Shown: positions 34,951 to 64,000 of the stretch, one piece after another | How the letters are laid out: each line of letters begins with the position of its first letter | How positions within the stretch are numbered: the first letter of the stretch is position 1 | Position numbers and translations under genes: made by a program | Assembly (NCBI GenBank): GCA_039621445.1 | Contig: CP154954.1 | Coordinates: forward strand, 25,308,954-25,372,953 | From: Euglena gracilis | Lineage: Eukaryota | Length of the DNA stretch: 64,000 bases | Direction of reading: 5' to 3' | Notes under the pieces: generated by a model | Told to the model about the DNA's origin: nothing | Database searches by the model: none | What the model saw: only the letters and a program-made list of their open reading frames with translations

Positions 34951-36700
34951 TCTAAGAAACTAATGGTGCGCTCTGAGGCGAGGGATGAAGAGCCATCAAC
35001 AAGATGGCTCCTCTGGGCTTTTCACCACAGAAACACCGGATAGCAATGGATGTTTATGGTTGTTGGTCAACCACGGTGGCAGCAACGTCGATTTGTTTGG
35101 ACCCCCCACCCCCCACCCCCAGGGTTGTCCGCCATGGGCTGCGCCTCCTCCTGCGCCACCGTCGTGCCCCGCGCGGAGGCCCCTCCGTCTCGGGCCGCTG
35201 CTGCCGCCGCTGCCCTGAAGGCAGAGTCCAGCCTGCTCTCTGCCAACCCAAACCGACGTGACTGGTTGGAGCAAGTCGAGCGGTGGGTGGGGCAGGCTTG
35301 CCAGGGGTTGCGGGGACACCATATGGTGGTGTACGGTGTTTAGATGGGGCGTCTCCCCTCACGCCTCCCTCCTGGACCGGAGGGGGGTGGTTCGACCCAC
35401 CCCTCTCCACCTGCCCTGGCAACCCCTGCCCATGACCGGCAGGGGGGCGGGACCGGGCAGCCAACGGTGAAGCCCCACGCCGCCGCAACCGCCTCGTTCG
35501 ACCTGCTGGAGCAGGCGGAGGAGGAGCACTCCCCCAACCAGGTTGCAAGGGCCCAGTAGTCAATGGGGTCAGGCCTCTTTCTTTACCCGCCCCCCCCCCC
35601 CCTCTCTGTTGTACGACCACCCGTCATTTACGACCACCCCGCGGTTGCAGGTTGCAGGTTATGGGGCGTTACGACCGGTGTCGCAGGTTGCAGGAACGTG
35701 GTCGTACGACTTAATTGAAACAAAGGTATCCTGTGTCTGGTTTTTTTGCCACCAGCTTCATGGCGCGTTGTGGCATTATGATGTCGTGTGATGTGTCGTG
35801 GCGTGGTGTTGTTGATAACATGTGTCTGTGTAGCTGTTTGTGTGTCCGGATGTTTGTGTGCGTACATGGGTTTTGGCTTGTTCGTTATGCATTGTGCCAT
35901 CTTCAAGCCTCTCAGGCTTCCCCAGTAAGTGGCTCTCTGGTTGCCCGGTTCTGAGCCCTCGGGTCTGTCCCCACCAGTTTCTGCACGCCGCCTGACGACG
36001 AGGACCTGACAGGCCCTACGGCAACCTGTGCCAGCCCCCTGCCGCGGCGCCGCCCAAACGCCCTCCTCACGTTCCGCGTTCGGGGGCCCCCGCGGACCCC
36101 CCAGGGCGAGAACGTGCTCACGTCCTACCCACTGTTTGCCTTCATGGCCTGTGCTGCAATTGCACAGGTCTGTGCGGATGGGTATGGGTTGGTGGGTGGG
36201 CTGCTGGGTGGGGCTACAGCTTACGGCACCCTGATAAAACCGTGGCAGGTTTTTGAAATTTGGGGCATTCATCACATTGGGCTTACAAGCCCAACGTGCC
36301 GAGAAGGAAATGCTGTAAGGCTTAATGAAATGGGCACAGTACTATTCTGGCCCCTCGGCTTGCACAGCGGGCAGCAGAGCCCATTTCCCAGTGTGGCCCG
36401 CCTGCCCATCGTGGCCCCCTCCCCCAAACCCTGGGCCGCGGCACCCCGGCCTCTGCCCCGCACCTACCGGGTCTCCCCCCTCCTCCCCCCGCTGCCCACC
36501 CCACCCCCCAGGGGCCTGCCCGGGGGCCGAAAGCTGCCGCAGCTGCAGTCCGTGATCTGGCTCGGGCGGCGCAGACTGTGCCAATTTTTCTTTCCCTCCC
36601 CAACCCTTCAGAGATAGATTTCTTTGGCATTTCGCACTTCGTGAAGACGCCATCCCCCTCCCCCGAAAAAAAAACACAGCTACCCTCCTCAGGGGTACAA

Positions 36701-37583
36701 ACATACATACATACATACATACATACATACATACATACATACATACATACATACATACATACATACATACATACATACATACATACATACATACATACGT
36801 ACATACATACATATGTACGTACGTACGTACGTACGTACATACATACATACATACATACATACCTACCTACCTACCTACCTACCTACCTACCTACCTACCT
36901 ACCTACCTACCTACCTACCTACCTACCTACCTACCTACCTACCTACCTACCTACCTACCTACCTACCTACCTACCTACCTACCTACCTACCTACCTACCT
37001 ACCTACCTACCTACCTACCTACCTACCTACCTACCTACCTACCTACCTACCTACCTACCTACCTACCTACCTACCTACCTACCTACCTACCTACCTACCT
37101 ACATACATACATACACACACATACATACATACATACATACATACATACATACATACATACATACATACATACATACATACATACATACATACATACATAC
37201 ATACATACATACGTACATACATACATATGTACGTACGTACGTACGTACGTATATACATACATACATACCTACCTACCTACCTACCTACCTACCTACCTAC
37301 CTACCTACCTACCTACCTACCTACCTACCTACCTACCTACCTACCTACCTACCTACCTACCTACCTACCTACCTACCTACCTACCTACCTACCTACCTAC
37401 CTACCTACCTACCTACCTACCTACCTACCTACCTACCTACCTACCTACCTACCTACATACATACATACACACACATACATACATACATACATACATACAT
37501 ACATACATACATACATACATACATACATACATACATACATACATACATACATACATACATACATACATACATACATACATACA

Positions 37584-37617
<34 letters not shown>

Positions 37618-38420
37618 CGTACATACATACATATGTACGTACGTGCGTACGTACGTATATACATACATACATACCTACCTACCTACCTACCTACCTACCT
37701 ACCTACCTACCTACCTACCTACCTACCTACCTACCTACCTACCTACCTACCTACCTACCTACCTACCTACCTACCTACCTACCTACCTACCTACCTACCT
37801 ACCTACCTACCTACCTACCTACCTACCTACCTACCTACCTACCTACCTACATACATACATACACACACATACATACATACATACACATACATACATACAT
37901 ACATACATACATACATACATACATACATACATACATACATACATACATACATACATACATACATACATACATACATACATACATACATACATACATGCAT
38001 ACATACATACATACATACATACATACATACATACATACATACATACATACATACATACATACATACATACATACATACATACATACATGCATACATACAT
38101 ACATACATACATACATACATACATACATACATACACACATACATACATGCATGCATGCATGCATGCATGCATGCATGCCTGCATACATACATACATACAT
38201 ACATACATACATACATACATACATACATACATACATACATACATACATACATACATACATACAAACATACATACATACATACATACATACATACATACAT
38301 ACATACATACATACATACATACATACATACATACATACATACATACATACACACACACATACATATATACAGACACACACACACACGCACACACACACTC
38401 ATGGTACATACATACATACC
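36701..38420. repeat. Compound tetranucleotide microsatellite (ACAT)n/(ACGT)n/(ACCT)n with ~360-400 bp higher-order units
   Basis: Read directly. Three cycles of ACAT block, ATATGT(ACGT)4-5, short ACAT, long ACCT block, followed by a final ACAT/GCAT/AC block. Confidence 0.98.
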
Positions 38421-40819
38421 CATATGCGAAGGCCATTTAAAAGCTCAAGTTCAGAAAAAAATCGTTTCACGTCGTGCACACAGCGGGGTTGCATTTTGGG
38501 GGAGGCTGTCGGTATCGCTGTGGGTGCAGACAGATATCACAGAAGTTCACGGAAAACTCTGTACCGCACTTACCGGGTCTCCCCCCTTCTCCCCCTGCCG
38601 CCCACCCTGCCCCCCCAGGCCCCTGCTTGGGGGCCGAAAGCCGCCGCAGCTGCAGTCCGAAACCCCCGTGGGTTTTGGTGTGGGTAGTGCCACAGAACCG
38701 TGCCGAAGGTGCCAGGGGCCCGGAAGTGGCTTTTGTCAAGGAATATTGCTTGGTTTCCTGGGGCCGTGGCCCAACACCGACCCCCCAGGGCAAGTTGTTC
38801 CTTCTGTTAAGAAGGAGCCCGAGCAGGACCTGAGGGCTTCCCCAGGTACTCACGCAGCATTGATTTTTCCGTTTTAGACCTTTTTTAGGCCTTCGGTGCC
38901 AATGGCCCTCACAGGACGATTACCCTGACTTTGGGAGATGACACACGAGGACCCCTCCTTTGAAGTAACTCCCGAGAAGCGATAAATGGTTTGGCCTACG
39001 CGAACAGAACCCGCCAGCAGTTTGCACCGCCCAAGTCTGAGGGGCCGGGGTCTGCTGCTTCCCCCCCCCCCCCCCGGCAGATCAGACCCCAGTCCGCCTC
39101 CCTGCCGTGGTGCAAGCCTCTCCTGTGCTCGGGTTAGATCGAACTCCCATCAGCCTGTGTTTTAGAAACCCCCTCCTGTTTAATCACCAGCCCCCCTGGG
39201 GAGGGCAGTGGTGCCGTTTATTACCCCCCAAAAAACTGGGGATGTTAAATTTTAAAAGCTGGACTGGTTGCCTCCACCACCGCAAACTTCTTTCATTTGT
39301 GCTAGCTTCTTTTTAAGGAAGTGTGCACCCTCCCTCCGGGGGGTGGGTGCTATGGGCAGGCATTTTCGACCCCTCCCAATGGGGGTCGAGCTTTGGGGTG
39401 GGTAGTGTTATAGCACACACCCCAGCGCCTTCTGCGCTGGGGCCCAGAAATGATCATTTCCAAGCGAAAATTGGCTTTGTCGGCAGTCACCGGGACCCAA
39501 AACCGACTGGCCCGAGGGGTGGGGTGCCTGATATGGTCAGGCCTCCCAGAGCACAAGGCACCCCTGGGGTTGGTAAAAATGCCTGCCCCAGGGGTGACAC
39601 TATTTGCTCTGGAGTTCCGGGCCAAGGACCACCGTGGTTGAAATCTGCCAAAAAGCACAAAGAGGTCTGCACCCACAGCGATGCCGACAGCCTCCCCGAA
39701 ATGCAACCCCGCTGTGTGAAACTATTTTTCTTTTGCATTTGAGCCTTGATGTTGAGAATTTCAGGTCCAAATGAAAATTCTAACCTCAACACCACCTACT
39801 CCAATGCAGCCTCCCCATTTCAAAAGTTTTTGTATAGGGGGGGGGTAATTGATAAGGGTACTGAAAAGAAAGAACCTGGAAAAATATTTTGTGGGAACCT
39901 CTCCACAAATTCCAAGGTCTAGAAAAATTTGTCCGCCACATTTCTGTGTCATCACTTTTTTTCAACAGACAAATTCCCAGATGTATGATTAACCCAGTGC
40001 GTATAATTAATACAGTGCGTACTGTTGCAATCTTCCCTTCCTCTGACGGCAAAATGGTGTATTTGAGAGTTTGGGGGTCCAACCAACACCTTTTTTTTTT
40101 TCCAGCCAGCCGGCTGACTTAGGGGGTATTTTTAAGAAGTATTTTTTCAGAAATTTCAAGGTTTTTTAAAGTTTTTTAAAACCTTTTCATGAGCTCTATC
40201 TTTCAAGGAAAGTCCAAGGGCCATTCCGGCATCGAATGGGGTCGAAGAAAGTCTAAAACCCCATTTTTTCGAGTTTGGGTGGATAGAGAGGGTTCCAATG
40301 ATGCCAGAAATTATTTTTCCCCGCAATTGGCTTGTTTTTGCCCAGATTTTGTAACTTCATTTTTTGCCTCAATTTTCAAAAATTTTGCCAGAAGGATTTT
40401 TCCAAGGTTTTCAGGGGTTTAAGGCATTTTTGGCCAGAAATTCTAAGGCATTTTTTTAGGGCTTTTAAGGTTTTTCAAGGCGCCTTAAAAAATCCGCCTG
40501 GGCTGGACCCGCCCCCACGGGGTCCGCAAGATATCCCCTGTTTCGGGTCCCAGCCCGAATGATTGATCCAGAAAGGGGCGTTTGAAAGTTGGGTTTATTT
40601 TTTTTGAGCGCAGCTGCCCTACAAGCATAGCTGGTGGGTTGGCTTACGTGGCTGCCCCACGACCCTCTGGTACTCCACGGAGCACTGGAACCACATTGCA
40701 CCCACAAGCCAAATGCCGGCGCATGACCCGCGTACCTTTGCCTCTCCACGTGATGCCCCCCGGCTCAGATGACCCCCGTGGCTTTTTATATTCCGAATTA
40801 TTTTACCTCATCCTTCCCG

Positions 40820-41603
40820 GGGGAGCAAAGGATATGCCGACACCCCGTGTTCCACCCGATGTTATTCCCCGTTCGTTCGTCCTCAGAGCGTTGTTTAAGA
40901 AAGTTTGGCCCCATCTTCTGGGAGCGGGGGGAGGGGCGGTCCAGCCAGCCGGCTGGAGAATAGCCTTGGACACTTCTCCCTTCCATCGACAAGTATTATT
41001 CATCTTCGGGCGGCTGGAGGGAACGGATTATTTTTGGCTTTCGAAGAATTTCTCGAGATACAGACATTTTTTTGGTTTCGAGTTATTTGGTACCGTTTTG
41101 ACCCACCCCATTTAACTCATGGAGAGGGAGGGGGTCAGCCAACACCCAGCACCGAGCCAGTCCATACTTTCCAGGCTCTGAGTTGCACCCAAGGGAATTA
41201 CCAAGCGACCTCCGGGGAGCAAAGGATATGCCGACACCCCACCCGATGTTATTCCCCGTTCGTTCGTCCTCAGAGCGTTGTTTAAGAAAGTTTGGCCCCA
41301 TCTTCTGGGGGCGGCCTGAGGGGCGGTCCAGCCAGCCGGCTGGAGAATAGCCTTGGACACTCCTCCCTTCCATCGACAAGTATTATTCATCTTCGGGCGG
41401 CTGGAGGGAACGGATTATTTTTGGCTTTCGAAGAATTTCTCGAGATAGAGACATTTTTTGTGGTTTCGAGTTATTTGGTACCGTTTTGACCCACCCCATT
41501 TAGCACATGGAGAGGGAGGGGGTCAGCCAACACCCAGCACCGAGCCAGTCCAAACTTTCCAGGGTCTGAGTTGCACCCAAGGGAATTACCAAGCGACCTC
41601 CGG
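40820..41603 (+). repeat. Recent ~390-bp tandem duplication
   Basis: GGGGAGCAAAGGATATGCCGACACCCC...CAAGCGACCTCCGG occurs at ~40820-41213 and ~41214-41603, nearly identical. Confidence 0.93.
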
Positions 41604-49099: not shown

Positions 49100-52000
49100 A
49101 AACTCTCACTTTTTTCATTCATGGGAATTTGCAGACGCCTTAAATGATACTTTTTGTTTGAGGTTTGTTAGGTCCCACGGTATCTCTAAAGAAACGTGCA
49201 AGGCAGTTTGTGAAGGATTCTGTGGTCATTAGGGCACAATATTCCTTTGATTCCACCTTGAAAATTTTTTGAAAAAGTTGCTTTATTTTCCTGCTAATTG
49301 GCTCAGGGATTGCAAGTGCCCTTGATGACTCATGATCTTTTGCCACATGCTGCACGTTGGAAGACGTACGACCCTCCCCCCCCACAATGGTTCAAGGGTT
49401 GTAGAGTGTGGCCAGTCGACGATTTGTTCTTCCGTCCCCTGCGACTCCACTTATCCCTGAGAGCCACATTGTGAATGGCCTTGCCAACAAATTTCCTTCT
49501 CCATCTGATATGTGAGTCTGATTTGGACTTTTGCACAATCCACGAACCCAGTGGTAGGACCCTGGTAGGAATTGCTTGATCAGAGAGGTCCACGGCCAAA
49601 TATTAATCGCAGGAATTGCATGGGTGGCGGTGGGGATGTTGACACCCAACTTTGTGAGGTCCGACCCCCCCACTCTTTCTACTCTTTCCTGGGGCCGGTT
49701 TTTTAGACAGAAAATTTTCTTTCCGCCCCTTCGGTGCAGAAGGAATTTTAGTTTGCACAGAGCGATAATGCATTTTATGGCCTCGACCTTTCAAAGAAAT
49801 TCCAAGGGCCATTCCAGCATCGAACGGGGTCCAAGATCAAAAAAGTCTAAAACCCCATTTTTTTCGAGTTTGGGTGGATAGAGAGGGTTCCAATGATGCC
49901 AGAAATTATTTTTTCTCCCCGCAATTGGCTTGTTTTTTGCCGAGATTTTGTAACTTCATTTTTGGCTCGAATTTCAAAAATTTTGCCAGAATGATTTTTC
50001 TAGGGTTTTCAGGGGTTTAAGGCATTTTTGGCCAGAAATTCTAAGGCATTTTTTTAGGGCTTTTAAGGTTTTTCAAGGCGCCTTAAATAATACCATCTGT
50101 GCTGGACCCGCCCCCACAGGGTCCGCAAGATATCCCCTGTTTCGGGTCCCAGCCCGAATGATTGATCCAGAAAGGGGCGTTTGAAAGTTGGGTTTATTTT
50201 TTTGAGCGCAGCTGCCCTACGAGCATAGTAGGTGGGTTGGCTTACGTGGCTGCCCCACGACCCTCTGGTACTCCACGGACCACTGGAACCACATTGCACC
50301 CACAAGCCAAATGCCGGCGCATGACCCGCGTACCTTTGCCTCTCCACGTGATGCCCCCCGGCTCAGATGACCCCCGTGGCTTTTTATATTCCGAATTATT
50401 TTACCTCATCCTTCCCGGGGGAGCAAAGGATATGCCGACACCCCGTGTTCCACCCGATGTTATTCCCCGTTCGTTCGTCCTCAGAGCGTTGTTTAAGAAA
50501 GTTTGGCCCCATCTTCTGGGGGCGGGGGGGGGGGGCGGTCCAGCCAGCCGGCTGGAGAATAGCCTTGGACACTCCTCCCTTCCATCGACAAGGATTATTT
50601 ATCTTCGTGCGTCTGGAGGGAACGGATTATTTTTGGCTTTCGAAGAATTTTACGAGATAGACCCACCCCATGCAGCACATGGAGAGGGAGGGGGTCAGCC
50701 AACACCCAGCACCCAGCCAGTCCAAACTTTCCAGGCTCTGAGTTGCACCCACAGGAATTGCTAAGCGAATTCCTCTGGTCGGCTGATATTTTGGTGGAGC
50801 GTTTCTTTTTCTTGTCTGGTTAGACCGCTTTGGATTTTTTTGGGGACTGGATATCTAAACACCATTTATAAAGCTGACAAAAAACGGGGTGTGAGGCCAA
50901 GGTGTGTGTTTTCATGTTTTCAGGTTTCATGTCTTGTTTTTTTTTTGCTCATGGACACCTCAAGGAACCCATGTCTTTCGTGTTTTTACAAATGTGTTTT
51001 TGCTTCGTCCCCTTGGGGTTTCACCCCACCTTGCCGCGTCATCGCCAACCTGCCTCCCTTCCACTGCTCTCTCCCATTCGCACCCCAACTCTGCGGCTCG
51101 CTGCCTGGGTTGGTGCCAGTGGTGGCGGTGCTGCTCCAGCGACAAAATCCAACAAATCCCGACAAATCCCGACATCAGCACCAAAATTTCTGCAAAAGGG
51201 GACGAAATTGTCCAAAGAACATCCTTTTGATCGGATATTGGTTTACACAAGCTTGTTTACACAACTGTTTTTTTAAAAAAAAATGCGAGATTATTGTTTT
51301 TTGGGGCGGTTTGAAGAAGCGGAATGCCAAGGCCAATGGCAGGAGAGCATTGTTGTCACCAAACAATATACTTGGAATATGCGATAAATATAAGTATTTT
51401 GGCACAAGCACACCCACACCAGTTGCTCTTAATCATGGGTTTGTGGGTTTGACCAGTCGCCAATTTTCTGCTTTTTATGCAGGCTTCCTTTGATTGTATA
51501 CCTCCCCCCACACTGCTGGTCCGTGACACCCCACCCCCACGTGTCAACTGCATTTTCCCCATATTTTGGTTTGGCAGGTCAAGGACAGTGGGGGATGTAC
51601 AAGGCCTCAGAAAGAAACTTGGCAGAGGTATTCGAAAGAAATCATCTACTCGATGGAATTGCTTTAGAAATGCTTGAAATCCCCAAACTTTTTGGGGCTT
51701 TGTTGTTCTATGTTCACCTTCGCTGTTCTCTGGCCCAATGTCCGTCTTCCAAACATGGGGGAGGAGGGCATCCACTGGCAGTGTACATATCTTTATGGTT
51801 TTGCAGACCTGGAGATTGTTGCCAGAAAGGTTCTGCGAGAGCGCACCCTCGGTGCCTCCGGTGCTCCGGTGCCCATCAGGCATTAAGAAGGGAATTCTGC
51901 TGTTTGGTGCTCAGCCTGAGCACAAACCTGAACCCTAAAAACACCCCAGGTTGGTCGGCCTCACTTAACGTGAGAAGTTTTTAAAGCGCCCATACCGATG

Positions 52001-54250
52001 GTTTGCGTTGATGAGCCGCATGTGCCAGCAACGAGCTGCTGCCACGGGTGGCGCGATGCGCTGTCCCTCCTCTGCCTGTGAGACTGTGAGAGGTAGTTGG
52101 CCTGCGCTGACCCCTGCTGTGACAGCAGGACACCGTGGTGCAGCTGCCTCTCAAGTTCATGGTACACCGCATGCAGGTTTTTCTCTTTGATCGGTATATT
52201 TTTCCTGGACCATGCAGAATCAAGTTTTGGTGCAAGTTTGCTATTCCAGATGGAGACGGGAATAGCTGATGGCGAAGTCAACCTGGTCAGCGGCGATTTC
52301 CTAGCGATCCGTGGCCATGCATTCATTTAACACGTGCGTGACCCCTCTGGGGGGATTTCTCGGGTGGGTGTGGCACAACCTTGGATGAAGTCAAGGTTAC
52401 GTCGCTTGACCCCCTCCCTGGGGGTTGGGATGCTCCATGGGCAGGCTTCTTTTTTTGGGAAATTTGCACTCCCAGGAGGTGCCAAGTGCAGGCAGGAGGT
52501 TATGGCATCGACCCCCTGGGAAAAAGTCCCCCCCCTCCCTCGGAGTCACTAAGTGGAAGTGGTCAGTATTTACAATGCTCTTATTTGCGTCGTCGCCAGT
52601 AGCAGTAGCAGTGTTTTGATACATTTCGACCCACAGGCAGAGAAAGCAAAAAACCTTCAGCAAAAATTACAATTGGTCCACAGCTCAGCCCGCATCTTCC
52701 TGTTCACAGCGCACCATATGATGGCCTAAATGCTAGCACACGTGGCGCACAAACGGTCCGCTATTTCTGCGCTTTTTTGGTTCCATGTCTCTCCTTGCGG
52801 TGTACAGTTCGGGCTGGGTTGGAGGATCAATGCCGACACGCCGAGGGGTGGTGATCCAGCCTGCCCAAATTTTCAGCCATTTCAGCACCCCTGGCCCAGG
52901 GGTGCCCATAGGGCTGTTAAGAAAGGGTCAGTCCAGCCCGTTCAGAGTTAGAAATTCCCTACCTACCCCTGGGAAACTGTCTGCTACCCACTGTTACCGC
53001 TGACCTGTCTCCTGACCTAGTCAAGAAGACAAAATATGACCTGTCTCCAATGCTTGTACCCGCTGACCTGTCTCCTATCAATTTTTTTTGAAGAATTTTC
53101 ACATTTTTTGAAGCATTTTTCCCAAGTTGAAAAAAATTTCTTCCATTTTTCTCCAGATGCTGATTCCAAATATTTCGAAAAAAAATCATGCCAATTTATT
53201 CCCACTAATTTATTCCCACTGACCCGGTGTACTGGCTGATTTGTCTGGAGGCAGTTTCTCGGCGGAGATGGGTAACAAAATATTGATTTTTTGGGTAGGT
53301 GTACTTGTGAGTCACCTCCCAACTGGCTGCAGGGAAGGAAAACCCACACAGGAGAAACACAAACACAGTTTTTTTTTGCATTTTTTTATGCTTTTTTTGG
53401 TTTTTTTTGGTCATTTTTTGATCTATTTTTTGTTTGAATTTTTTGACTTTGAAGAATTTCTCATTTTGATCCCATTTTATTATGAGACAAGAAATGCCAT
53501 TTTGCCATTTTTTGCATCTTTGGTCAACAAATTGCATATTTTTTATGAAAAATTAAAAAATTTCCTTGTAGAGGTGGAAATTTTTCCAAGTGCATTCCAG
53601 CAAAAAGTGCACATCCCGGGGAGCTGCTGAAGGATTTTACACACACAAAAGATGCACCTTTTTTTTGCATTCTTTTGCGTTTTTTTACGCCTACTTTTTG
53701 GCGCCGGCGCGTTGTAAGCATTTTTTTTTGGCGTCGCGTTTTCCAACGGTCATGTTGTATTCTCTCCCCTGCTGAGGGGGAGTGAATGCAATGAATGAAT
53801 GAGGCTGGTGGTAGGGTTGACAGGTTTTCAAAATGTAGGTGGGTGCAGCATTTCCCACAAATTTGTTTCACAAACAACCACAAATAATCACAAACCAGCA
53901 CAAAGTTTTGGGACATCCCAAAATCACAAGAAACCACAAATGACCACAAACAGCGATTTTTCCCTTTCTTTGAACGTGCTCCTCTGAAAATGGCTTTCGG
54001 TCGAGGATTAATTTCCCTATTTCGACAAATTATTGATGAATTCACCAAGCTGCCTAGGGAAGGGGGAAAATGGGTCGGAAAGAATTGGGCATTGAAGGTG
54101 CAACCGCTTTTATGCTGAGTTGAAATTCTTCTGCGACATCAGGATTAAGTTTCTCCACGACTGCTCTGAGGACCAATTTGGAATCAAGCATTCAAACACT
54201 GGGCTGACTTTTACGGTTTAGAAATTCCCATCCCACCACATACAACAATC
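49100..54250 (-). pseudogene. Decayed YR-retrotransposon relic, copy B
   Basis: Paralog of the above. Fragments include IPIKEKNLHAV, TTKPQKVWGFQAFLKQF (YR SAM-like W..F..FL), IVQKSKSD and GWTDP. Confidence 0.42.
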
Positions 54251-55363
54251 CACAGGATAAAGTACCAAATACCCCCCCGGGCGCTTGGCCCCCCTCCTTA
54301 CGTGCAAACTTGCCCCCAAAGTGCACATGGCCGCCAGAAACCTTAAGATATAAACTTGGCCCCCCAAGGTTGGCCCCCCGGCCTTCCCTTCAAACGTGGC
54401 CCAGGCCCACCGCACAGGGAGGGGGGAGGGGGTTGCCCTTGTGTCAGCCAAACACAAACAATGTCTGGTGTCCCGGGACCTCCGCCCGATGCATCGAAAC
54501 AAACACGTCACTCCCAGGCTGGGCTGTACGGGATGCCCCGCAACAGATGGGTGTGTCGGCGGTGGGGGTCGACCACCTCCCCACCCCCATTCCATCCTGG
54601 TGGTATAGGGAGGGGGTCCCTCCACCAGGCCTTCCCTTATTTCCCGTTGTGCCAATTTTTAGGTCAGAATTGTCTTTTGGCGCCTTGGCGCCGAAGGAAT
54701 TTTCTTTGAACGTGTCCCACGGTGGGCGGGAGTTGACCCCCCCCCCCCAGGCCTTCCCGTACAGCCCTGCCCCCCAGGGCAACCGCCTGCAGGTGCTTCT
54801 TCCCCTGACCCTCCCTCCAGAGACAACCGATGGGCTGCCCACCTCATGCCCCAGCGCCCCTGGCCCTGCGGAGGCCTCCCCGGCTCCCCCGATCGCCGAC
54901 CCCCCGACCGGGTCAAACGGCCCCATGAGGTCCCACGTCCCGACCCGGCGGAACAACGAGGGAGGCCGCCGCCCAGGGACCGGAGGAGAGCGGAGGCCTG
55001 TGGGGGCGACGGTGCGGGTGGAAGCCGGGCGGCAACGGGCGGGGGGGGGGCAGCGCATTTTGCGGTGTGGTTTGATCTGTGTCGGGCCAGCGGCCGGGCC
55101 GGCCCGCCTCCCCCGGCGCGCTGTCCGCCGACAGCCTCGGCCACGGTCCTTGGCGACCCCGCCTTTCGCCGGCGCGCCTCCACCCAGAGTGGGCGATCAA
55201 CAAAGCTGCACACGGCCTCGTTCGACGGGCTGGAGCAGGTGGTGGAGGATCATCGCTGAGGTTAAAACTCCCGAAAAAAATCTGCAATTACCGAGCTCGT
55301 GAACAGGAAAAAAATTTTCTTGGCCATCCTGGGGTGTATTATTAGTACCCCTCCTGGGGGGGT

Positions 55364-55784
55364 ACACCAAGAGCACAGAACCCAGGTGGGGTCCAAAGGT
55401 CGAGGAAACAGCAGCAGCAGCAGCAGCCCAGCAAGCAGCAGCGGAAAGTATTTCCTTCCCAGGGGGACCCGGAGGGCCGTGGTGGTAAAAAGAGTCCACT
55501 GCAGGTGACACCGGTACTCGCCGGCACGCAGTGGAGGAGTGGGCCCCTTGGGAACCCCTCTTGGGAATGAAGTTGAGCAGCAACAGAAGCAGCAGCAGCA
55601 GCAGCAGCAAGAAAGGGGAGCCAAAAAGCTCAAGGGGGAGGGGAAGGACCAGGAAACCACAAAACGGACGTTTGAAGTGGATATAGGGTCAGACAATTAT
55701 TGTGAGTTGCTCCGAAGAAAGGGCCAGAAGCGGAATGCAGCGCCAGGCCTTGAACCAGACGGAAGCCAAAGTGCACCTAAGGGG
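55364..55784 (+). repeat. 5' pseudo-LTR of the PLE
   Basis: Direct repeat of 60555-60968, from ACACCAAGAGCACAGAACCCAGG to GTGCACCTAAGGGG, roughly 85% identical by eye. Confidence 0.9.
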
Positions 55785-56058
55785 CATCACCCGCGCAAGC
55801 TGTGTGGTCCTGCACTCCCAGGACATGACATCCAAGAATTGCATTTCCATACCCTTGGACAAAAAACAATTTTTCCAGGAAAGTTTTCAAGGTTTTCAAC
55901 TGGAGGGACCATCGTGCCTGGTGTGAAAAAATCTGGAAGGAAGGAGCGTGAAGGAAGTCCAGACCAAGGTGGCCTCCATCCAGCACCGGTGGTCGGCAGA
56001 TGGTGATTTCCACCATGTCCCGCAATTTGTGGAAGGAAGGGATTCTGGCACAATGTCA

Positions 56059-56345
56059 GAGATCTATTACATGCACCATTTGCCTTCAGGGAAGGGGTAC
56101 GTGGGCCTGGCCCACCATGGTGCGCACGAGCGCATGAAAACACATTGGGGTGTCAGAACCGGGAGACTGATCCCATCAGCATGATGATGCGTAACAGCTC
56201 CAGTGCATTTGAATGGATATGTTGGCCAGTGGAGAGGTTCCCAGGACGCCGAGAAAGGCGCAAACAGTTTCACAAGAAAGCTGCCCATCGAGAGGGCTGG
56301 TGGGCATCTTTCCTGGGCACCTGGTGGCCGCGGGGCTTCAACTGG
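56059..56345 (+). pseudogene. GIY-YIG endonuclease domain (frameshifted) of the PLE
   Basis: ORF 55948-56184 has EIYYMHHLPSGKGYVGLAHHGAHERMKTHW (GIY..YVG..R..H). ORF 56145-56468 continues with REGWWASFLGTWWPRGFN, the E..W...L.T..P.G.N C-terminal motif. Confidence 0.88.
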
Positions 56346-57229
56346 GGAGCACTGGCGGGTACCATAAAGGTGGTGCAAAGGCGGATTGGAACACCCACCG
56401 AGAAAATTTTTACCGAGAGTGGTACAGCAAGTCGGAAAGAGGATTGGCAGATGCGAAACAGTGGGTGAAGGATATTTGTGACGCCATCACCTCAGGGCAG
56501 GACGTAGGCTGGGAACAGCTTGAGCAAATTCAGCAGAAGCGGGATGTGCTCCAGGCGTTGAACATGGACCCAGCGCTGGCAGGACCCCACCGGCGGCGGC
56601 TGGAGCGTTTGGTGCGGGAGGAGCTCAAGCGACACAAGGAGCTCAAGAAGAAGCCCAAAGGAGATTTTGTGAAATTGCTAATCACCCACAAAGGATGGAA
56701 CGCACCAGAGGTGAGGAAAGTGATCCGGGAACTGCAGGTTTGCAAGTTGCACCCAGACCCCACAGCTGCAGAACACATTTGGGTGTGTGAACACAAATTT
56801 CCACCCATTGGCAGCTGGTTGCTGAATTAAACTGCGCTTGAAGATGAGCACCTCACCGCGAAACAGAGAGCCGAACTCTTAACTAGGAAAACATCAACGG
56901 TGAGAAAGACCCCAAAAGTTTCTGTCATATCTTTCATCCACGGGTGGAAGATGTGTGGAAAGGACATATCGGCACCGCAGATGTCAGGAAGTTCAACAGT
57001 CCGCTTGTGCGTGGTTTGTTGATCAAGGGGCAAGCCTACTAGCTGGAACACAGGGCTGAGACCTTGCTGCAGGAGTTAGGAAATGGGCTGGATGGATATA
57101 TCCAGTAAAAGATGAAAAGGGGAGGAGACCCTATAGATTTTGAAGCCTGGAAATTGGCAATCATCCAGAGAGTGAAGGAGAAGCTCACAGGCTCTGACAA
57201 CGCCATGTTCCCCACAGGAGACAAGGGCC

Positions 57230-58520
57230 AGAAAGAAATCCAGGCCCTCCAAGAGCATTTGGTGTTTCTGAAGGAAGATTGGGCACCGCATGTTGGGGTG
57301 GCCATGTGCACGTACAGATATATGTGGGGGCATACCTTTCAGGTGGACAAGGAAGACCCACAAGCCCTTACCCAAAGGCATTGGCATTTCCTCGAAAAGA
57401 GAGGGCTGCAGCCCAACAGGCACACATTTATGGAATCTGGAAATCTGCCAAAAGGAACCTGCGGTGGATAAGCGGTGTGGGAAAAGACAAGGAGGAGGAA
57501 AAAGGAAAGGAACACACAGAGCCAGAAGGGTCCATTGCAGGCGCCGGCAAGGAGTTGGTGGGTGTGCACACACAAGTGATGCATTCACTCCGGAGCAAGG
57601 ACGCCCACAACCGCAGGAAAGGGTTGGCCAAGGCATGCTGGTTTGTTGAATCGGTTGAGGAGGTGGCACAGCCGTTGCGCTTTGAAGCCACAGATGTGGC
57701 CAAACAGGGTGCAATGGCAACTACGGTGGATTTTGTAACAATGTAGCCCTCATTTGACCAGATGTTGTTGAAAGACAGGCTCAGGGATGCGATCTGTGAG
57801 GCTTGGGGATGGGAGGAAAAGAGATTGGAAGCGAGGCACCTGCTACGGGCAAGGAAAGACAGGTGGGTGCACCTCAGCCAGAGGAAGCAGCACAGGATGC
57901 TTCTGGATGCTGGTCAAAGGAGGCGGTGTTGGCAATTTGTGATTGACACTGGGTTCATCAAGAGGGGAAGCACGCTGCTGAAGCAGGTGAAAGGGTTTGG
58001 GATGGGGTTGGCATGTGCACCCCAAATTGCCAACCAAATTGCTACCCTGTTGAGAGAGGTTTTGACGTCACAAAGACATTTGAGGAAATGACATTTGAGG
58101 AAATGGAGCACAATTACCATTCCATTGATGATATTCTCTCATTTTCCGGATGCATCCCGACTGCAGAGCAGTATGGCATGCAGTACAAATACACAAAGAC
58201 CAATGATGGAGAATCTGTGTACCTCGGAATGGTCCTCAAGTGGCTCCTGCTAGTGCACACAGGGGAAATGATGTTCTTCACCGGAATGCATTTCAGAGAT
58301 TGCATGTACCCAATCCGAATCAGGAGGTACCCAGGGGCAGGGTCAATGGTCACAGACTCCCAGCGCTTGGGGGTCCTCACTGGCCAGTTCATCAGAGCAC
58401 AAAGGCTGTGCTCTACACTGCAAATGTTCAAATTTGCAGTGCAGGGCATTGTCCTGGCAGCCACCCGTAGGGGGTATTTTAGGCGTGCACTGGACCGCAC
58501 GTGGAGCAAATTCCTTGCTG
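57230..58520 (+). pseudogene. PLE-type reverse transcriptase and thumb (stop codon and frameshifts)
   Basis: Motifs appear in order: LQEHLVFLKEDWAP..MC..Y; IYGIWKSAKRNLRWISG; WFVESVEE; TVDFVTM*P (TAG where Y is expected); KQVKGFGMGLACAPQIAN; YHSIDDIL (YIDD-like); VYLGM; thumb YPGAGS..GVLTGQFIRAQRLCS..F..RRGY. Confidence 0.92.
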
Positions 58521-58650
58521 ATTGGTGGAAAGCGGAAGAAATCCGGCGGGTGGAGCTGCGTTCGTGGTTCCGCAAAATGATTTGTGTGGTGAGGCTGCAA
58601 TTGCAGAAGGAGGGCAAGGAGCACAGCAAAGCTGTCCCATTTGCAAAGAA

Positions 58651-58710
58651 ATTGTGCCGGTTTGGAAGCGGGCGTTTGTACCAAGAGGTTGGGTGCCCAT
58701 TCCAGCACAA
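58651..58710 (+). pseudogene. Degenerate CCCH zinc finger after the RT thumb
   Basis: LCRFGSGRLYQEVGCPFQH fits C-x5-[C>R]-x6-C-x3-H. The R codon CGT is one transition from TGT. Confidence 0.6.
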
Positions 58711-58789
58711 GGTGCCAGTCCGTCAGCACGCTGCATGCCAATGCTGCTGTGGGCACAGCGGGGAAGTAGTCAGGAAGAACCAAGCAACC

Positions 58790-59195
58790 CTGTGGTTAGC
58801 AGCCCCCGATGGGTCATTTCTGTTCCATTGCGCCGCCGTGTCTAACGAGGGCACCGTGGCTCTGGAACTGCACCCCAAAGTATGCAAAGTACGCAAAGTA
58901 AGCAGCTTATGTCAGGGAGGAATGGGATACAGAGATCCCGGGTTCGGGAATGTCGGTAGGACAAACCTTGACCACCCTGGGCTGGGACAAGGAGGATATT
59001 TGGCATCTGTGGTCAGCCATATCCATTGGGCTGAAGAACCAGAGCTGGATTTGTTGCCTTCTGTCTTGAAATTCAGACTGCGGGTGTTTCTGGACCATGG
59101 TGACCATTGGCAAGAGTGCACACAATATGGCTCCAGAGGTCCCCTCAGGCGGGTGGTGTTCCACCAAAACAGGGGGCATCACGACGCGATCATGA
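58790..59195 (+). pseudogene. OTU-like cysteine protease (deubiquitinase) domain in frame with the RT
   Basis: ORF 58013-59542 contains PDGSFLFHCAA (cf. DG[N/S]CLF; TTT is one change from TGT), YLASVVSHIHWAEEPELDLL (Y....W[G/A]..E[L/I]), LRVF and VVFHQNRGHHDAI (cf. HYD). Confidence 0.7.
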
Positions 59196-59908
59196 TGCAC
59201 GGAATCCCGGATCCAGAGAGGAGCCACCACACAACCCACTGGAAGGTGAGGAAACCACTGCTGGTGGTGCCAACCAGGGCTGAGAACAAAGCCGAAGCTT
59301 ACCAGAAAGCTGTGCAGAAGCGCAGAGCAAAGATCAGGAGGGAGAAATTTGAAGCGAGTCGCCAGGGCAATGTTTTCATTGATGACGACGTGGAGTTGTT
59401 GATGAGTTTTGCAGAGCGCAGCTGTGACACGAGTGTTGCCTGCAACAACTCCATGGCAAGCCCTGGGGGTCCGAGAAACCACTCCCAGCCAGGACTGCAT
59501 GGCAGTTTACAAGAGGATGGGCTTTCTGATCCACCCGGATGAATGTTCCAAAGAGGCTTTTCAGAAGCTGGGAGATGCCAAGGATTAGGTGGATGACAGA
59601 GAAGCATGGTACGCAAATTACCAACAAAGGGAGGCGTCCGACCGACTGGCGAGGTGTTGGGCACTCTGGGTTGCCGGAGGCGGGCAGCTCAACATCTTGC
59701 TGGTAGAAGAAGACCTGCAACGCCATTCTGGTTTGGGAGAGGAGGGCGTGTTGCACATACAGCTGGCAGCACATCGGTTTGGCATGGGTGGAAACCGAGG
59801 TACTGTTGCAGAGCAGGCTCAGGCAAAGCACACACACCAGGACCCAACCTCAATAGTACCATAGTGAACAAACAGAGCACAGACAACAGAATATGAGGCG
59901 CTAGGCGA

Positions 59909-59958
59909 GGGCGTCAGGAAAAGAGAGGTTCTCTTCTGATGGGGACACAGAAATGGCA
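59909..59958 (+). ncRNA. Candidate degenerate hammerhead ribozyme
   Basis: GTC (59913-15), a stem (agga/tctt or aagaga/tctctt), CTGATGG (59936-42; consensus CTGANGA), a short spacer and GAAA (59950-53). It lies between the ORF end and the ORF restart. Stems II and III are imperfect. Confidence 0.3.
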
Positions 59959-60968
59959 GCAGAAGAGGAGAGCCACGATTGGAAGTAAGGGGAGCGGATA
60001 GGCGAGGCCGAGAGCCGTGGTCCTCTGGTCACAGCCAAAGGGGGTCCCTGGGGACAAAAAAAGCGAGAGCCGGGGAATGCACCAAGAGCCCAACAAGCTC
60101 CTGGAGGCAGCCAGCCCCACCAGAAATGGCACCAACCCGTTAAGCAAAACAAACCAAACAGTGCCGAAGGCTGGACCACAGTCCGAGGCACCGGAAAATC
60201 AATTTCTACACACACTCCCAACCACCTGCCTTGATTTCGCCACCACAGTTTGGAGGTAACCACACAAAAGGTGGACACACCCACATCTACACCAACGCCC
60301 GCAACAATGGCAAGGCGTGCTGGTTTGGGCAGCGGTGTCTGTACCAGTACCCAGCCAACTGGTGGGGATACACCCAAAAAGTGCAGCCCACAGAGAAGGG
60401 CACCCCATGGGGAGGGCGGGGCAGACCCGCGGGGGAACAGCGCATGTGCAAGTATGGTATGGGATGCTCGCGGAGGACCACCTCCTGTCCATATATCATC
60501 ATGCCCATCCAATTGTGAACAACGACGCAGACAGCAACACAACAATTGGGAACCACACCAAGAGCACAGAACCCAGGTGGGGTCCAAAGAGTCAGGGAAA
60601 CAGCAGCGGCAGCACCAGCCCAGCAAGCAGCGGCGGAAAGTATTTCCTTCCCAGGGGGACCCGGAGGGCCTGGTGCTAAAAAGGACCCACTGCCGGTGAC
60701 ACCGGTACCCGCTGGCATGCAGTGGAGGAATAGGCCACTTACCACCCCGAGCACCTCTTGGGAACGAAATCGAGCAGCAACAGAAGTAGCAGCAGCAGCA
60801 GCAGCAAGAAAGGGGAGCCAAAAGCTCAAGGGGGAGGGGAAGGGCCAGGAAACCACAAAAGTGAATATGGGGTCAGACAATTATTGGGAGCTGCTCCGAA
60901 GAAAGGGCCAGAAGCGGAATGCAGCGCCAGGCCTTAAACCAGACAGAAGCCAAAGTGCACCTAAGGGG
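59953..60968 (+). pseudogene. Restart of the PLE ORF N-terminus (two CCCH-like fingers and a Q-rich tract) in the 3' pLTR region
   Basis: ORF 60231-60518 has ACWFGQRCLYQ.. and MCKYGMGCSRRTTSCPYI, the same C-x5-C-x6-C spacing as the finger at 58651. The downstream CAG-rich segment equals the 5' repeat that leads into GIY-YIG. Confidence 0.6.
60555..60968 (+). repeat. 3' pseudo-LTR of the PLE
   Basis: Direct repeat of 55364-55784. Confidence 0.9.
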
Positions 60969-63900
60969 GTCTTAAAGTTCCCCCCATGCACTGCAAAAAA
61001 AATTATTCCTCCAGTTATTTGTATTTTAAATTGTTTTGTTTTCCCGACAAACAGCATTCTGGTGGTGTGCGTTTGTGTGTGCGAGCATGCGGCACCGCCT
61101 GCCTGTCCCATCAACCTCCGCCTGCTTCTCCAGGAGGAAAAGGAGATGGTCCATTCCCCGGAGGCCCAGGGCCACCCTCCGCCAAAGTAGCGGCGGAACG
61201 CCATCACCTTTGAACCCCGGGCTCCACCGCACTAAGGGTTTCAGCGACCTCTCGTTAGCTTTTGCCAGGGTGGCTGTAGTGGGCTCTGCTGCCAAAAACT
61301 GTGCGGGCTTTGGGTATGTATGTTTATGTTTTTTGGATCATAGAGTATGGGTGGAATGACGGAACATCAAAAAATTTACCATCGACCAAAGGCCCACCTA
61401 TTTGCCCAAAATTGCGATTGAAGAGGGGTTCCTTTTCCAATGTCTTAATTTTGTAAAATGTTTCCACCCCTCCGCGCGGCTTCGCAAAAGGTCCATTAAA
61501 CAAATTTTCAAAAGTGAATGGTGGAAAAAATTTTAGGAAAGAAAGGTGCTCTTGCAATCTTTTTATTTTCGCATATTTTTTTGTTTGGATTGGATTACAC
61601 AATGTGCCTTTCCAAAAATAATATTTCGAATGGAAATGAATTTTGAAAGGATTTTCGATAGTTTCTTTTTTGTTTTTCGGGGCAACCAGGCCGGCTTTGT
61701 TACTGACGCAGATGAGTGTGGAATCAAACGACAGTCCGAAGTGAAGAAAATTTACAAAAGACGAAAAGGAAGCGGAAAAGCGCTTCAATGAGAAGATGAA
61801 AAATTTATGTTATAAATCAAATGAAAGTGAATTCAGTTCAAACGGTGCATATCAAAGCCTAAATACAGCTGCTTTTCATTTCAGGAGGGATATGAAAAAC
61901 CTTACGCACTGAGCAATCAGATTAGGCATTAAGTTTAATTAATGTGCAACAAATCACAGTACAGTCACAACAAAATGTACACAAATAGAAGATACAGAAC
62001 GATACAGACCTGTAACTAAAGTCCCCGGGTGAGGATCACCGCCATCATGAGCGGGAGGAGGGAATACCTGCAAAAAAAACAGACGGTAAGTTGATGAATC
62101 GGTATTCCGCTTCCTGAAAATGAAAAGGAAGGAATTTCACCGATTCATATTATACTGCAGAGGTCCAAAACTGAAAAGAGTGCCACCAACGAAATTGAAA
62201 TCACTGCATGCTCAATGTAATAACAAACACTGCAGTCCCGAACAATCTTGAATGGATCATCAAACCCCACTGAGAAGATGCATCCGAAACAAAGCAGTAA
62301 AAAGCCATCAAGATCAAGATGCTGTAACGTCAGCTTAATTGCCAAACAAATGAATGAAATGAATGGTCTCAGCAACCCACGTCCCCCCGGCACACCACCC
62401 AGCTCCGCAGCCATGCCAACACCAAACACAAAGGAAAGACACGGGTGGTTCTGGTGTGACGAAGGTGTGCGCAGGTGTGATGGTGCGACGAAGGTTGGGG
62501 ACTGGGTCTGGATGGATGCACCAGCCCTGCACCTGCAGGCACTGCCCCTTCAGGACGTGCACTGACTGACCTGTCTGACATGTGCAGCGTGTGTCCCAGG
62601 TTTGCTGTATTGATATCCTTCAGTTTCAACCGGATTTTCTTCAATCACAGGTAAATCGTTGTAACCAAAGAGATCAAACTCCACGGTTTCTGGTTTTCTG
62701 GCTGGTTTTTCTCTCGTTTCCTTTGTCAGATCCACTGCAGATTCGGCAGATTTAGCTTGCTGATTTTGTTGCAATTTTTTCCGCTCCTGCTGTTACATTC
62801 GAAGTTCGCTGCACTGCTGTTGCAGTAAAACTCCAACCTGCTGTTTCATCTTTCATCTTTCATCGAATTTTCCATTTCCGCCCGGATTTTCAGTGTCTGG
62901 GTGGAGGTTCGTGTGACCTCGCCATAGAGGTGGCCGGGGGGGGGGGGCACAGAAATTAGGCACTGCAAAAAATGCCCAAAGAACTGCAAATTGTGTAAAA
63001 TACCGACCTTTCAAAACCAAATTTGAGCTGGGCGGCCCTGATGGACGGGGGTCGGGGGGGCTACTGGGCTGCTCTGGTTAGGTTGCAATTTTGGACCCGA
63101 GCCCTACTGATGGTTGGGGTGGAATTTTACCGTAACAGTTTAGACCGTGCCGCTGCGTCTGGGCTGGGCCAAAACCGGGGCCTGGCAGCAGCCCTCTGGT
63201 GGGATTTGCCAAATTGTAAAGAGATGTATGTGCCCCATAATAATCTACCACAACCACTGCTACTGCCAGTGCTGCTACAATGATGCTGTGCTCTGTTGTC
63301 CTAGGAGTAATCCGCATAACATACACCCAATGGAGGGAGCAGAAAGGTCTAAGTTTTGGAGTATACGTATTTGTTTGCTACCCAAAGAAAAACACATGAG
63401 AGGAATACCTCCTGTCTTTCTGTCTGCAAGGGGGTATATGCAACAAAGCCCCTCAAAATATGCAAATACGCAGATGCACTTTTATGTTGGAGAGGACATA
63501 ACGTTGGAAAGGATCATTTTTTCATCTCCTTCAGAAAAAAAATCACTTTGCGACATTAATGCATTTGGTGTGCAATACGGTGCATGTTTTTGGACAATCA
63601 TACAATTATTCAGATTTTTCTGTAACAGGACGCATAAAAGCATAAACAAAACAGTGTCTTTAACAAGTTTTTGAAAAATGCCAAAAAAAAAAGATCAAAA
63701 AATGCACCAAAACTGCACAAAAATGCACACCAAAAGAAAGAGTGGTGCAAACTTGCAAAATGACATTGGTTGGTTTGCCCAGTTTGCTTGACCTCATATT
63801 TCATTATGCAACGATTTTCACTGTTTAAGTTTCTGTGTAGAATTGGTCAAAAAAATTTTGAATTTTGCAACTTCCAGTATTCTTGGAGTAGAGCTGTTTG

Positions 63901-64000
63901 CCTGCACCTTCCCCTTGCCCTTGACACGCCAAAATATGGGGAAGGTGCGGTTGACAGGGGGGGGTGTCATGGACACACCGTGCCACATGTACTGTACCAT

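Follow-up and report, generated by a model that had tools for sequence, protein, structure and literature searches.

The stretch of DNA analyzed here, referred to as the window, comprises 64,000 nucleotides of the Euglena gracilis contig CP154954.1 (NCBI GenBank assembly GCA_039621445.1, positions 25,308,954 to 25,372,953 of the forward strand), and all coordinates are counted from its first letter. Positions 55364-60968 are a dead insertion of a retroelement, consisting of a partial upstream copy, or pseudo-long terminal repeat (pseudo-LTR), followed by one unit of 5.2 kb (Table 1). The element is very probably a Penelope-like element (PLE) of the N-terminal-endonuclease type represented by Chlamys and Naiad, a placement based on shared traits and not on a reverse transcriptase (RT) tree. 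In its intact relatives a single protein carries, in order, a GIY-YIG nuclease, a CxC motif, the RT with its thumb, a CCCH finger, an OTU domain, a DnaJ J domain and further CCCH fingers, with a PHD finger at the end of some family members.

The longest readable part of the window copy is a stop-to-stop open reading frame (ORF) of 531 residues at 57947-59542 on the forward strand. An initial annotation, made from the letters alone, had seen here a single open frame with an RT IDD motif and OTU-like motifs, and its coordinates and codons were reproduced in this ORF. HSIDDI lies at ~58118-58135, as placed by offsets in the alignment to the relative P0024, and the same ORF holds CRFGSGRLYQEVGCPFQH and HWAEEPEL. 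TTT at 58817-58819 encodes the Phe of DGSFLF, with WAEEPEL further on, and CAC at 59180-59182 encodes the second His of GHHD. The same columns read DGSCLF and (G/P/K)HY(D/N) in aligned relatives, so that TTT and CAC are each one substitution from the family state, as the annotation had stated for its Cys and Tyr codons. The window translation alone speaks against an OTU protein: the Pfam OTU scan that the annotation had proposed for it gave nothing, with no OTU or RT match at E≤1, nothing relevant was found in Pfam for the ORF and its upstream frames (a weak T5orf172 match had E=0.23), and the ORF gave chance matches alone among PDB sequences (E>0.3). The motif reading therefore needed outside support.

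This support is provided by relatives of the ORF. Among 5.8 billion protein clusters, the ORF is matched by 22 near-length proteins and by eight longer ones at E values of 1e-41 to 1e-237, and the window reading is thus not due to chance. The best of them is EukProt EG_transcript_489 (P0024), the 1264-residue product of a Euglena gracilis transcript, which is 78% identical. One NCBI match is labeled Genlisea aurea, a label that may not reflect its true source, and it should be noted as a weakness of this evidence that most of the relatives are ENA, JGI or Logan records with taxonomy mostly not given. Scanning metagenome contigs with the family alignment A1 gave 60 pattern matches, none of which was confirmed.

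The Pfam OTU model (PF02338, cutoff 23.3 bits) is matched above cutoff in 10 of the 21 relatives first scanned, including P0002, P0005, P0007, P0008, P0013, P0020, P0026, P0028 and P0029, and below cutoff at E≤0.005 in eight more. Seven further relatives (P0044, P0063, P0122, P0139, P0147, P0154 and P0159) also exceed the cutoff, and scores for the 16 relatives named range from 23.9 to 38.9 bits. Among 20 rows of alignment A5, 19 have the catalytic Cys and 18 the DGxC motif; the His of HY(D/N) is found in 16 of 17. When P0008 was modeled with AlphaFold2 (AF2) from an alignment of 20 rows, the predicted local distance difference test (pLDDT) score was ~90 at residues ~260-400, the OTU part, for which Foldseek returned 52 PDB matches at E≤1e-3. 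All 29 among the matches listed are OTU-domain entries, namely nairovirus and other viral OTUs, OTUD1-3, DUBA, yeast Otu2 and a Wolbachia OTU, the top match being the OTU of Crimean-Congo virus (CCHFV; E=5e-7, target TM 0.67, 24% identity). More than 20 separate contigs show thumb, CCCH and OTU in this order within a single frame. Judged by profile matches, conserved residues and modeled fold, the OTU domain is real in this family. The claim of the initial annotation that an OTU domain is carried on an RT protein is thereby borne out by Pfam matches in relatives, by retention of the Cys and His across the family and by the OTU fold recovered with AF2 and Foldseek, with RT, CCCH and OTU joined in one protein throughout the family.

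Many relatives additionally carry a DnaJ J domain C-terminal to the OTU, a domain that the annotation had missed. Pfam DnaJ (PF00226, cutoff 27.8 bits) is matched at 64.5 bits in P0007, 56 bits in P0031, 70.5 bits in P0067 and 69.5 bits in P0183, and at 29-35 bits in P0025, P0026, P0027, P0029, P0043 and P0063. The remnant in the window, at 59412-59579, has kept its HPD tripeptide and matches the model below the cutoff (E=0.0036, 17.8 bits).

The window copy itself is a fossil and not an active OTU member, and it can perform none of the functions proposed below for the element. Compared with P0024 (tblastn of P0024 and P0025), it shows about ten frame changes and four in-frame stops, with the frames between 55683 and 59431 running +3, +2, +1, +3, +2, +1, +3, +2, +3, +2, +3. 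Its start codon is ATA, not ATG, and its CxC motif has been lost with a nine-codon deletion (NQRQEETCPC of P0024 is absent). The GIY-YIG remnant at 55999-56410 is split across frames +1, +3 and +2, and the RT is read in frame +3 to ~58034 and then in frame +2, with a stop at ~57744 and the IDD at 58124-58132. A CCCH finger had been annotated and indeed lies at 58655-58708, but its second Cys is Arg in this copy (CRFGSGRLY vs CRFGSGCLY in P0024). Within the OTU, ~40 codons (~58872-58993) are out of frame, and the true residues of this part, AAYVREEWDTE...LGWDKE, are read in frame +3. The cause is a compensated pair of frameshifts that together leave the ORF open, namely a short tandem duplication (~58872-58905) and the loss of 1 nt at 58993. 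The first ~30 codons of the annotated ORF, before ~58040, are likewise out of frame relative to the RT, and its tail from ~59412 is the J domain in the wrong frame. The frame that had been called uninterrupted is thus open from 57947 to 59542 but masks lesions inside the OTU, at its start and at its tail; similarly, the two substitutions to which its decay had been ascribed are both present, but the copy is broken far beyond them. With Phe at the catalytic Cys and the internal disruption of the frame, the OTU of the window is inactive. In Logan DNA contigs from a run of the same species label, T (giving Tyr) stands at 59180 in all three covering contigs and an extra G follows 58993 in seven, so that other copies carry the family state at these two sites.

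Table 1. Features of the insertion at 55364-60968 of the window.
Feature	Position	Strand	Basis or remark
Upstream pseudo-LTR, partial tandem copy of the 3'-terminal ~420 bp	55364-55784	+	87.9% identical to 60555-60968
ORF start (ATA), in the upstream pseudo-LTR	55683-55685	+	P0024 residues 1-34 align here
Full-length decayed unit, 5184 bp	55785-60968	+	tblastn of P0024 and P0025; repeat spacing 5184-5197
N-terminal GIY-YIG remnant (EIYYMHH...KGYVG...R..H...E...N)	55999-56410	+	ORF 55927-56184; alignment to P0024 116-251
CxC linker site, motif deleted	56887-56920	+	Alignment gap vs P0024
DK(G)-like motif before the RT; window FLKEDWAPHVGV, family FLKEDRAPHVVV	57265-57300	+	Alignments
RT core and thumb	57423-58590	+	tblastn/P0024 alignment; weak RVT_1 in relatives; Atlas HTH_animal/RVT_1 clusters
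CCCH finger (family C-x5-C-x6-C-x3-H)	58655-58708	+	Alignments; weak zf-CCCH_2 in P0007
Inactivated OTU domain	58775-59190	+	Alignments; Pfam OTU in relatives; fold match
Out-of-frame stretch in the OTU	58872-58993	+	Frame +3 translation; tblastn high-scoring segment pair 58911-59024; 7 contigs
DnaJ J-domain remnant with HPD, frame +3	59412-59579	+	Alignment to the P0025 J domain
Downstream CCCH remnants (KACWFGQRC..., CKYGMGCSRRTTSCPY)	60312-60494	+	ORF 60144-60518 vs P0025 CCCH repeats
3'-terminal segment, downstream pseudo-LTR copy	60555-60968	+	Intact ATG at 60867 opening MGSDNYWELL...

The two pseudo-LTR copies are direct repeats ~5190 bp apart, and the likeness of the flank to the element ends at 60968. 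The reading that opens at the ATG at 60867 agrees with the P0024 N-terminus in 33 of 34 residues. Since the unit holds these first 34 codons in its final ~100 nt, a full copy must begin its ORF in the upstream partial copy and read across the tandem junction; in P0025 and P0041 the frame passes from the C-terminal CCCH fingers into N-terminal sequence without a stop. Pfam gave no match for the downstream CCCH remnants and a zf-CCCH_2 match of 19.8 bits, below the Pfam cutoff, for the finger of P0007. The summed depth of DNA words in Logan contigs of the DNA run climbs toward the 3' end, from ~2,200 at 55925-56298 to ~339,000 at 60787-60968 (~150-fold), as expected for many 5'-truncated copies, although word depth is not copy number, which tells against this use of it. 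Inside the element the depth is 2,000-30,000, compared with the ~339,000 in the last ~180 bp that hold the ATG and the 34 codons, and possible sources of this excess, noted for 60787-60968 together with 55364-55737, are solitary 3' fragments or a non-autonomous derivative with the same end. No RNA run was listed as containing the sequence. When ~5-6% of each of three RNA runs of the same species label was compared with it, 104, 76 and 64 reads matched at 88% or more. Appreciable RNA read depth (2-10 per strand column) is seen at 60787-60968 alone, where many reads continue into unrelated sequence; outside this segment the depth is below 3, and with both strands hit the signal is too thin for claiming expression of the window copy.

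The N-terminal region of P0024 has the pattern IYY...KGYVG...R..H...E...N, which is kept in six homologues (alignments A2 and A4). When the family profile A5 was run against 1.84 billion representatives, 4489 proteins were retrieved at E≤1e-3, and among 44 long matches scanned, nine contain a Pfam GIY-YIG domain (five above cutoff), in every case N-terminal to the RT match. A hidden Markov model (HMM) of 136 columns made from the family N-terminus matches the Pfam GIY-YIG stretches of P0083, P0107, P0118, P0130, P0135 and P0168 at E values of 1e-17 to 4e-5 in a set of 201 proteins; in P0083 it covers 109-223, with Pfam at 109-184. Protein-language-model features (Atlas), a lead only, also point to GIY-YIG clusters (scores 0.93-0.94). 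By this transitive profile matching, an N-terminal GIY-YIG nuclease is assigned to the family. Between nuclease and RT, all 11 family rows that cover the column have C-x-C, and KEDR(A/G)PH is found in 14 of 14 rows at a position which we take to be that of the DK(G) motif of PLEs. In P0024, ~85 residues separate RWISG from TVDFVTMYP, an interval of interest for the insertion in fingers domain (IFD) that the clade has between RT2a and RT3(A). PF26215, named HTH_animal in Atlas, is precomputed on P0002, P0006, P0009, P0010 and P0031.

Several results weigh against these domain calls and against the placement within the PLE tree, which is itself indirect, being drawn from sequence traits. A direct search for GIY-YIG in the N-terminus of P0024 and five homologues gave no Pfam match, PHROGs gave none, and a PDB profile search with A4 gave 0 matches; the AF2 model of the P0034 nuclease had a pLDDT of 54 and no Foldseek match at E≤1e-3. 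PF26215 was not reproduced in a fresh Pfam scan, and in the DK(G)-like motif the D is kept and the Lys is Arg, i.e., DR. Additionally, neither a clean target-site duplication nor a microsatellite could be made out next to the insertion, whose 5' and 3' flanks contain just short runs of C or G (CCCCTCCTGGGGGGG and TTCCCCCC, respectively). It could be argued from the last residue of that motif, from the weak Pfam RVT_1 matches, from Pfam scans in which no PLE-specific model was matched and from a missing hammerhead ribozyme (0 Rfam matches at E≤1 in 52000-64000) that the element belongs to another RT class, such as a long interspersed nuclear element (LINE), DIRS or an unclassified one, with a GIY-YIG-like N-terminus. 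This is highly improbable, however, given that a GIY-YIG joined to an RT is a PLE hallmark, that the RT adjoins Atlas HTH_animal/RVT_1 clusters of green algae, cnidarians and rotifers (scores 0.94-0.97), its nearest clusters, and that scans of relatives detected no domain of the APE, RLE, integrase or tyrosine recombinase kind. Four of the traits stated for the Chlamys/Naiad clade are moreover seen here, namely the N-terminal GIY-YIG, the CxC, the pseudo-LTR and a missing hammerhead. The assignment to a PLE lineage made in the initial annotation can therefore be kept and extended by these traits, but the domain order is permuted and not the canonical one.

PLEs are usually described as encoding an RT and a GIY-YIG only. 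Chlamys and Naiad elements, as presented in the parts of Craig et al. (2021; PMC8557442) on which we draw, resemble the element of the window in having an N-terminal GIY-YIG with conserved R, H, E and N, a CxC before the RT, pseudo-LTRs from partial tandem insertion and no canonical hammerhead; their length range of 3.3-8.2 kb covers the element here, and PHD accessories occur in some members of both. They differ in having DK(G) where DR is found here, and the clade is described as inserting into (CA)n or (C)n microsatellites (PMC8557442). Their reported hosts are the green lineage, Physarum and invertebrates (PMC8557442), and the main text of that paper contains neither Euglen-, Excavat- and Discoba nor dinoflagellate. 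OTU, USP, Ulp1 and DnaJ are unmentioned in the parts of PMC8557442 examined. The nearest precedent is Chlamys-1_cBra of Chara braunii, with an ORF of ~1,800 residues and, toward its C-terminus, a weak Josephin-like motif and a C/H-rich motif (PMC8557442). It shares with the present family a long ORF with a C-terminal motif resembling a cysteine protease of a deubiquitinase family, but its likeness to Josephin is weak, whereas the OTU of the family here is supported by Pfam and by its fold and has a J domain after it. The initial annotation was not aware of OTU as a standard PLE domain, and none was found described in the literature searched; it missed, however, this Josephin-like precedent for a cysteine protease in a PLE.

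Deubiquitinase-type cysteine proteases fused to the replication protein of a mobile element are also seen in other classes. Dualen non-LTR retrotransposons, LINE-like elements of the APE/RLE kind, carry a Josephin-like domain (cited in PMC8557442), and animal and fungal Helentrons, which are rolling-circle DNA transposons, carry an OTU-like domain (PMC6431247, in the part consulted). The nairovirus L protein, source of the top structural match, likewise has an OTU fused to the replicase polyprotein of a selfish element, but there it accompanies an RNA virus polymerase and here a retroelement RT, and common descent is supported by the OTU fold alone. The literature searched, which was without most subscription journals and supplements, yielded no description of a PLE with an OTU or other deubiquitinase, or of Penelope in Euglena; PLEs are unnamed in the examined parts of papers on the Euglena genome (PMC11252322) and the Diplonema genome (PMC10161547) and of a 2026 Euglena retrotransposon preprint. 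The combination of an OTU and a J domain after the RT of a PLE is thus one not found described in the literature searched.

More distant RT relatives show that the C-terminal slot can be filled by other proteases. USP (Pfam UCH) occupies it in P0067, P0183, P0094, P0192, P0097, P0112, P0138 and P0174, and in P0123 it is present as a sub-cutoff fragment; the P0094/P0192 cluster is named from Diplonema papillatum. Current annotation calls such proteins of Euglena-type hosts and diplonemids hypothetical or, in D. papillatum, 'Ubiquitin carboxyl-terminal hydrolase 26'. Josephin is found in P0058 (41.9 bits), P0186 and P0088 (27.0 bits), and Ulp1 in P0176 and P0190. One case is P0183, which shares 43% identity with P0024 over the nuclease-to-thumb part and then continues with USP (113 bits) and DnaJ, replacing OTU and DnaJ. 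An RT-core tree (IQ-TREE, 391 columns, 64 rows, LG+G4, midpoint root, SH-aLRT support only, without the three near-duplicates P0190, P0191 and P0195) recovers the OTU family as a clade of 15 rows with support of 100, within which the USP-bearing P0183 is sister to the OTU-bearing P0031 (SH-aLRT 98). Replacement of OTU by USP, Josephin and Ulp1 favors an isopeptidase role over polyprotein processing, and this non-homologous replacement, which we regard as strong comparative evidence, argues that removal of ubiquitin or a ubiquitin-like protein (Ubl) would be the selected activity. On the opposite side, the tree contains a 17-row clade of RT relatives without a C-terminal extension, which shows that the RT lineage taken as a whole can do without the protease. 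It is a tentative proposal that PLEs of protists with an N-terminal endonuclease have repeatedly fused an isopeptidase of one of four unrelated folds (OTU, USP, Josephin or Ulp1) to the C-terminus of the RT, often with a J domain and with one fold replacing another in one lineage, and that ubiquitin or SUMO removal would then be a required step of their life cycle in these hosts.

Other C-terminal additions and fusions were observed in the same set of relatives. A C-terminal PHD finger follows the OTU or DnaJ in P0028, P0043, P0044 and P0046, and P0042 has the PHD alone. P0076 (2811 residues) joins a kinesin motor to GIY-YIG and RT and is probably a gene model that reads through an intronic copy of a related element. 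In the interval between nuclease and CxC, an LGG tripeptide (LQALN.D..LGG..R, P0024 ~300-312, window ~56560-56600), which resembles a ubiquitin-type C-terminus, is kept in six of nine A2 rows; as a candidate cleavage site it was dropped because it is absent from the USP-bearing P0183.

How these domains could serve the element is a matter of prediction, and it must be set against any functional model that enzymatic activity, substrate and benefit to the element are all predicted from sequence or fold. The GIY-YIG would nick the target, and reverse transcription would be primed there. The OTU, as a ubiquitin/Ubl isopeptidase, would strip conjugates from the element protein, from its ribonucleoprotein (RNP) or from nearby host factors, and the J domain would recruit Hsp70, so that the two together could keep ubiquitin-dependent quality control or restriction away from the element. 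Protection of the element protein or RNP from ubiquitin-dependent turnover by OTU and J domain is the role that we rank first, with confidence that stops somewhat short of even; action on chromatin comes second and polyprotein processing third.

An action on chromatin would mean that histones or repair factors at the target are stripped of ubiquitin or SUMO by the protease, which would in this way aid integration or escape from silencing. PHD fingers, a common Chlamys accessory with a possible chromatin role (PMC8557442, in the part consulted), co-occur with OTU or DnaJ in the four relatives named above. We consider this role unlikely, however, as PHD is found only in a minority of the scanned relatives and the protease is more constantly accompanied by the J domain, which points to protein folding or turnover.

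Still somewhat less likely is that the OTU is a polyprotein-processing protease comparable to arterivirus PLP2 or the tymovirus protease, which would separate the nuclease, the RT and the accessory parts of a long, possibly multi-unit product. Both activities, polyprotein cleavage and deubiquitination, are found in OTU and papain-like proteases of viruses. Cleavage could be needed where a very long ORF crosses the tandem junction without a stop, as in P0025 and P0041, and the LGG between nuclease and CxC, kept in those six rows, would be a conceivable site. Against this, relatives have USP, Josephin or Ulp1 in the same slot, and these enzymes recognize ubiquitin or SUMO as a folded moiety and are not known to read a linear site; the LGG is missing from P0183, in which a USP takes the place of the OTU, and Pfam scans detected no ubiquitin-like domain in the family protein. 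The least credible reading is that the OTU does nothing for the element and is a mere passenger, taken up as a host exon or joined on in a fused gene model, since the inactive window copy, the RT clade without any C-terminal extension and fused gene models such as that with the kinesin motor are outweighed by the thumb-CCCH-OTU order in one frame on so many separate contigs, by catalytic residues kept at 40-60% overall identity, by the contiguity of RT and OTU in the window DNA itself and by the refilling of the slot with other isopeptidases.

Protection from ubiquitin-dependent turnover thus heads the candidate roles, and the family is of wider interest in several respects. It adds a predicted OTU deubiquitinase and a predicted Hsp70-recruiting J domain to the PLE repertoire, and it probably extends the PLE clade with permuted domains to a Euglena-type host and to diplonemids. 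The replacement of one protease by another in the same slot provides a testable handle on ubiquitin-based restraint of retroelements by the host and on the counter-moves of the elements. If the proposal is true, retrotransposons would have in these proteins their own equivalent of viral deubiquitinases of the OTU and USP type, which would point to unrecognized ubiquitin-based control of retroelements in Euglenozoa and other protists, and the substrate of the isopeptidase could be the element's own protein or the chromatin of the target site.

The insertion lies in a rearranged and repeat-rich neighborhood. A segmental duplication surrounds it, with 11529-17098 matching 51373-55247 and 60988-61729 at 72-88% identity. 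The paralogous copy has a different stretch of 1.2 kb at the matching place and carries two of the blocks in swapped order. The paralogous segment 14339-17098 was considered as an empty site and set aside as rearranged and not clean, and for this reason no target-site duplication can be read from it. Elsewhere in the window, 36695-38428 is a dense tandem or satellite-like array with many self-matches and a GC skew of -0.55, and much of the window is taken up by several further dispersed repeat pairs of 65-95% identity, for example 40185-41208 and 49773-50768.

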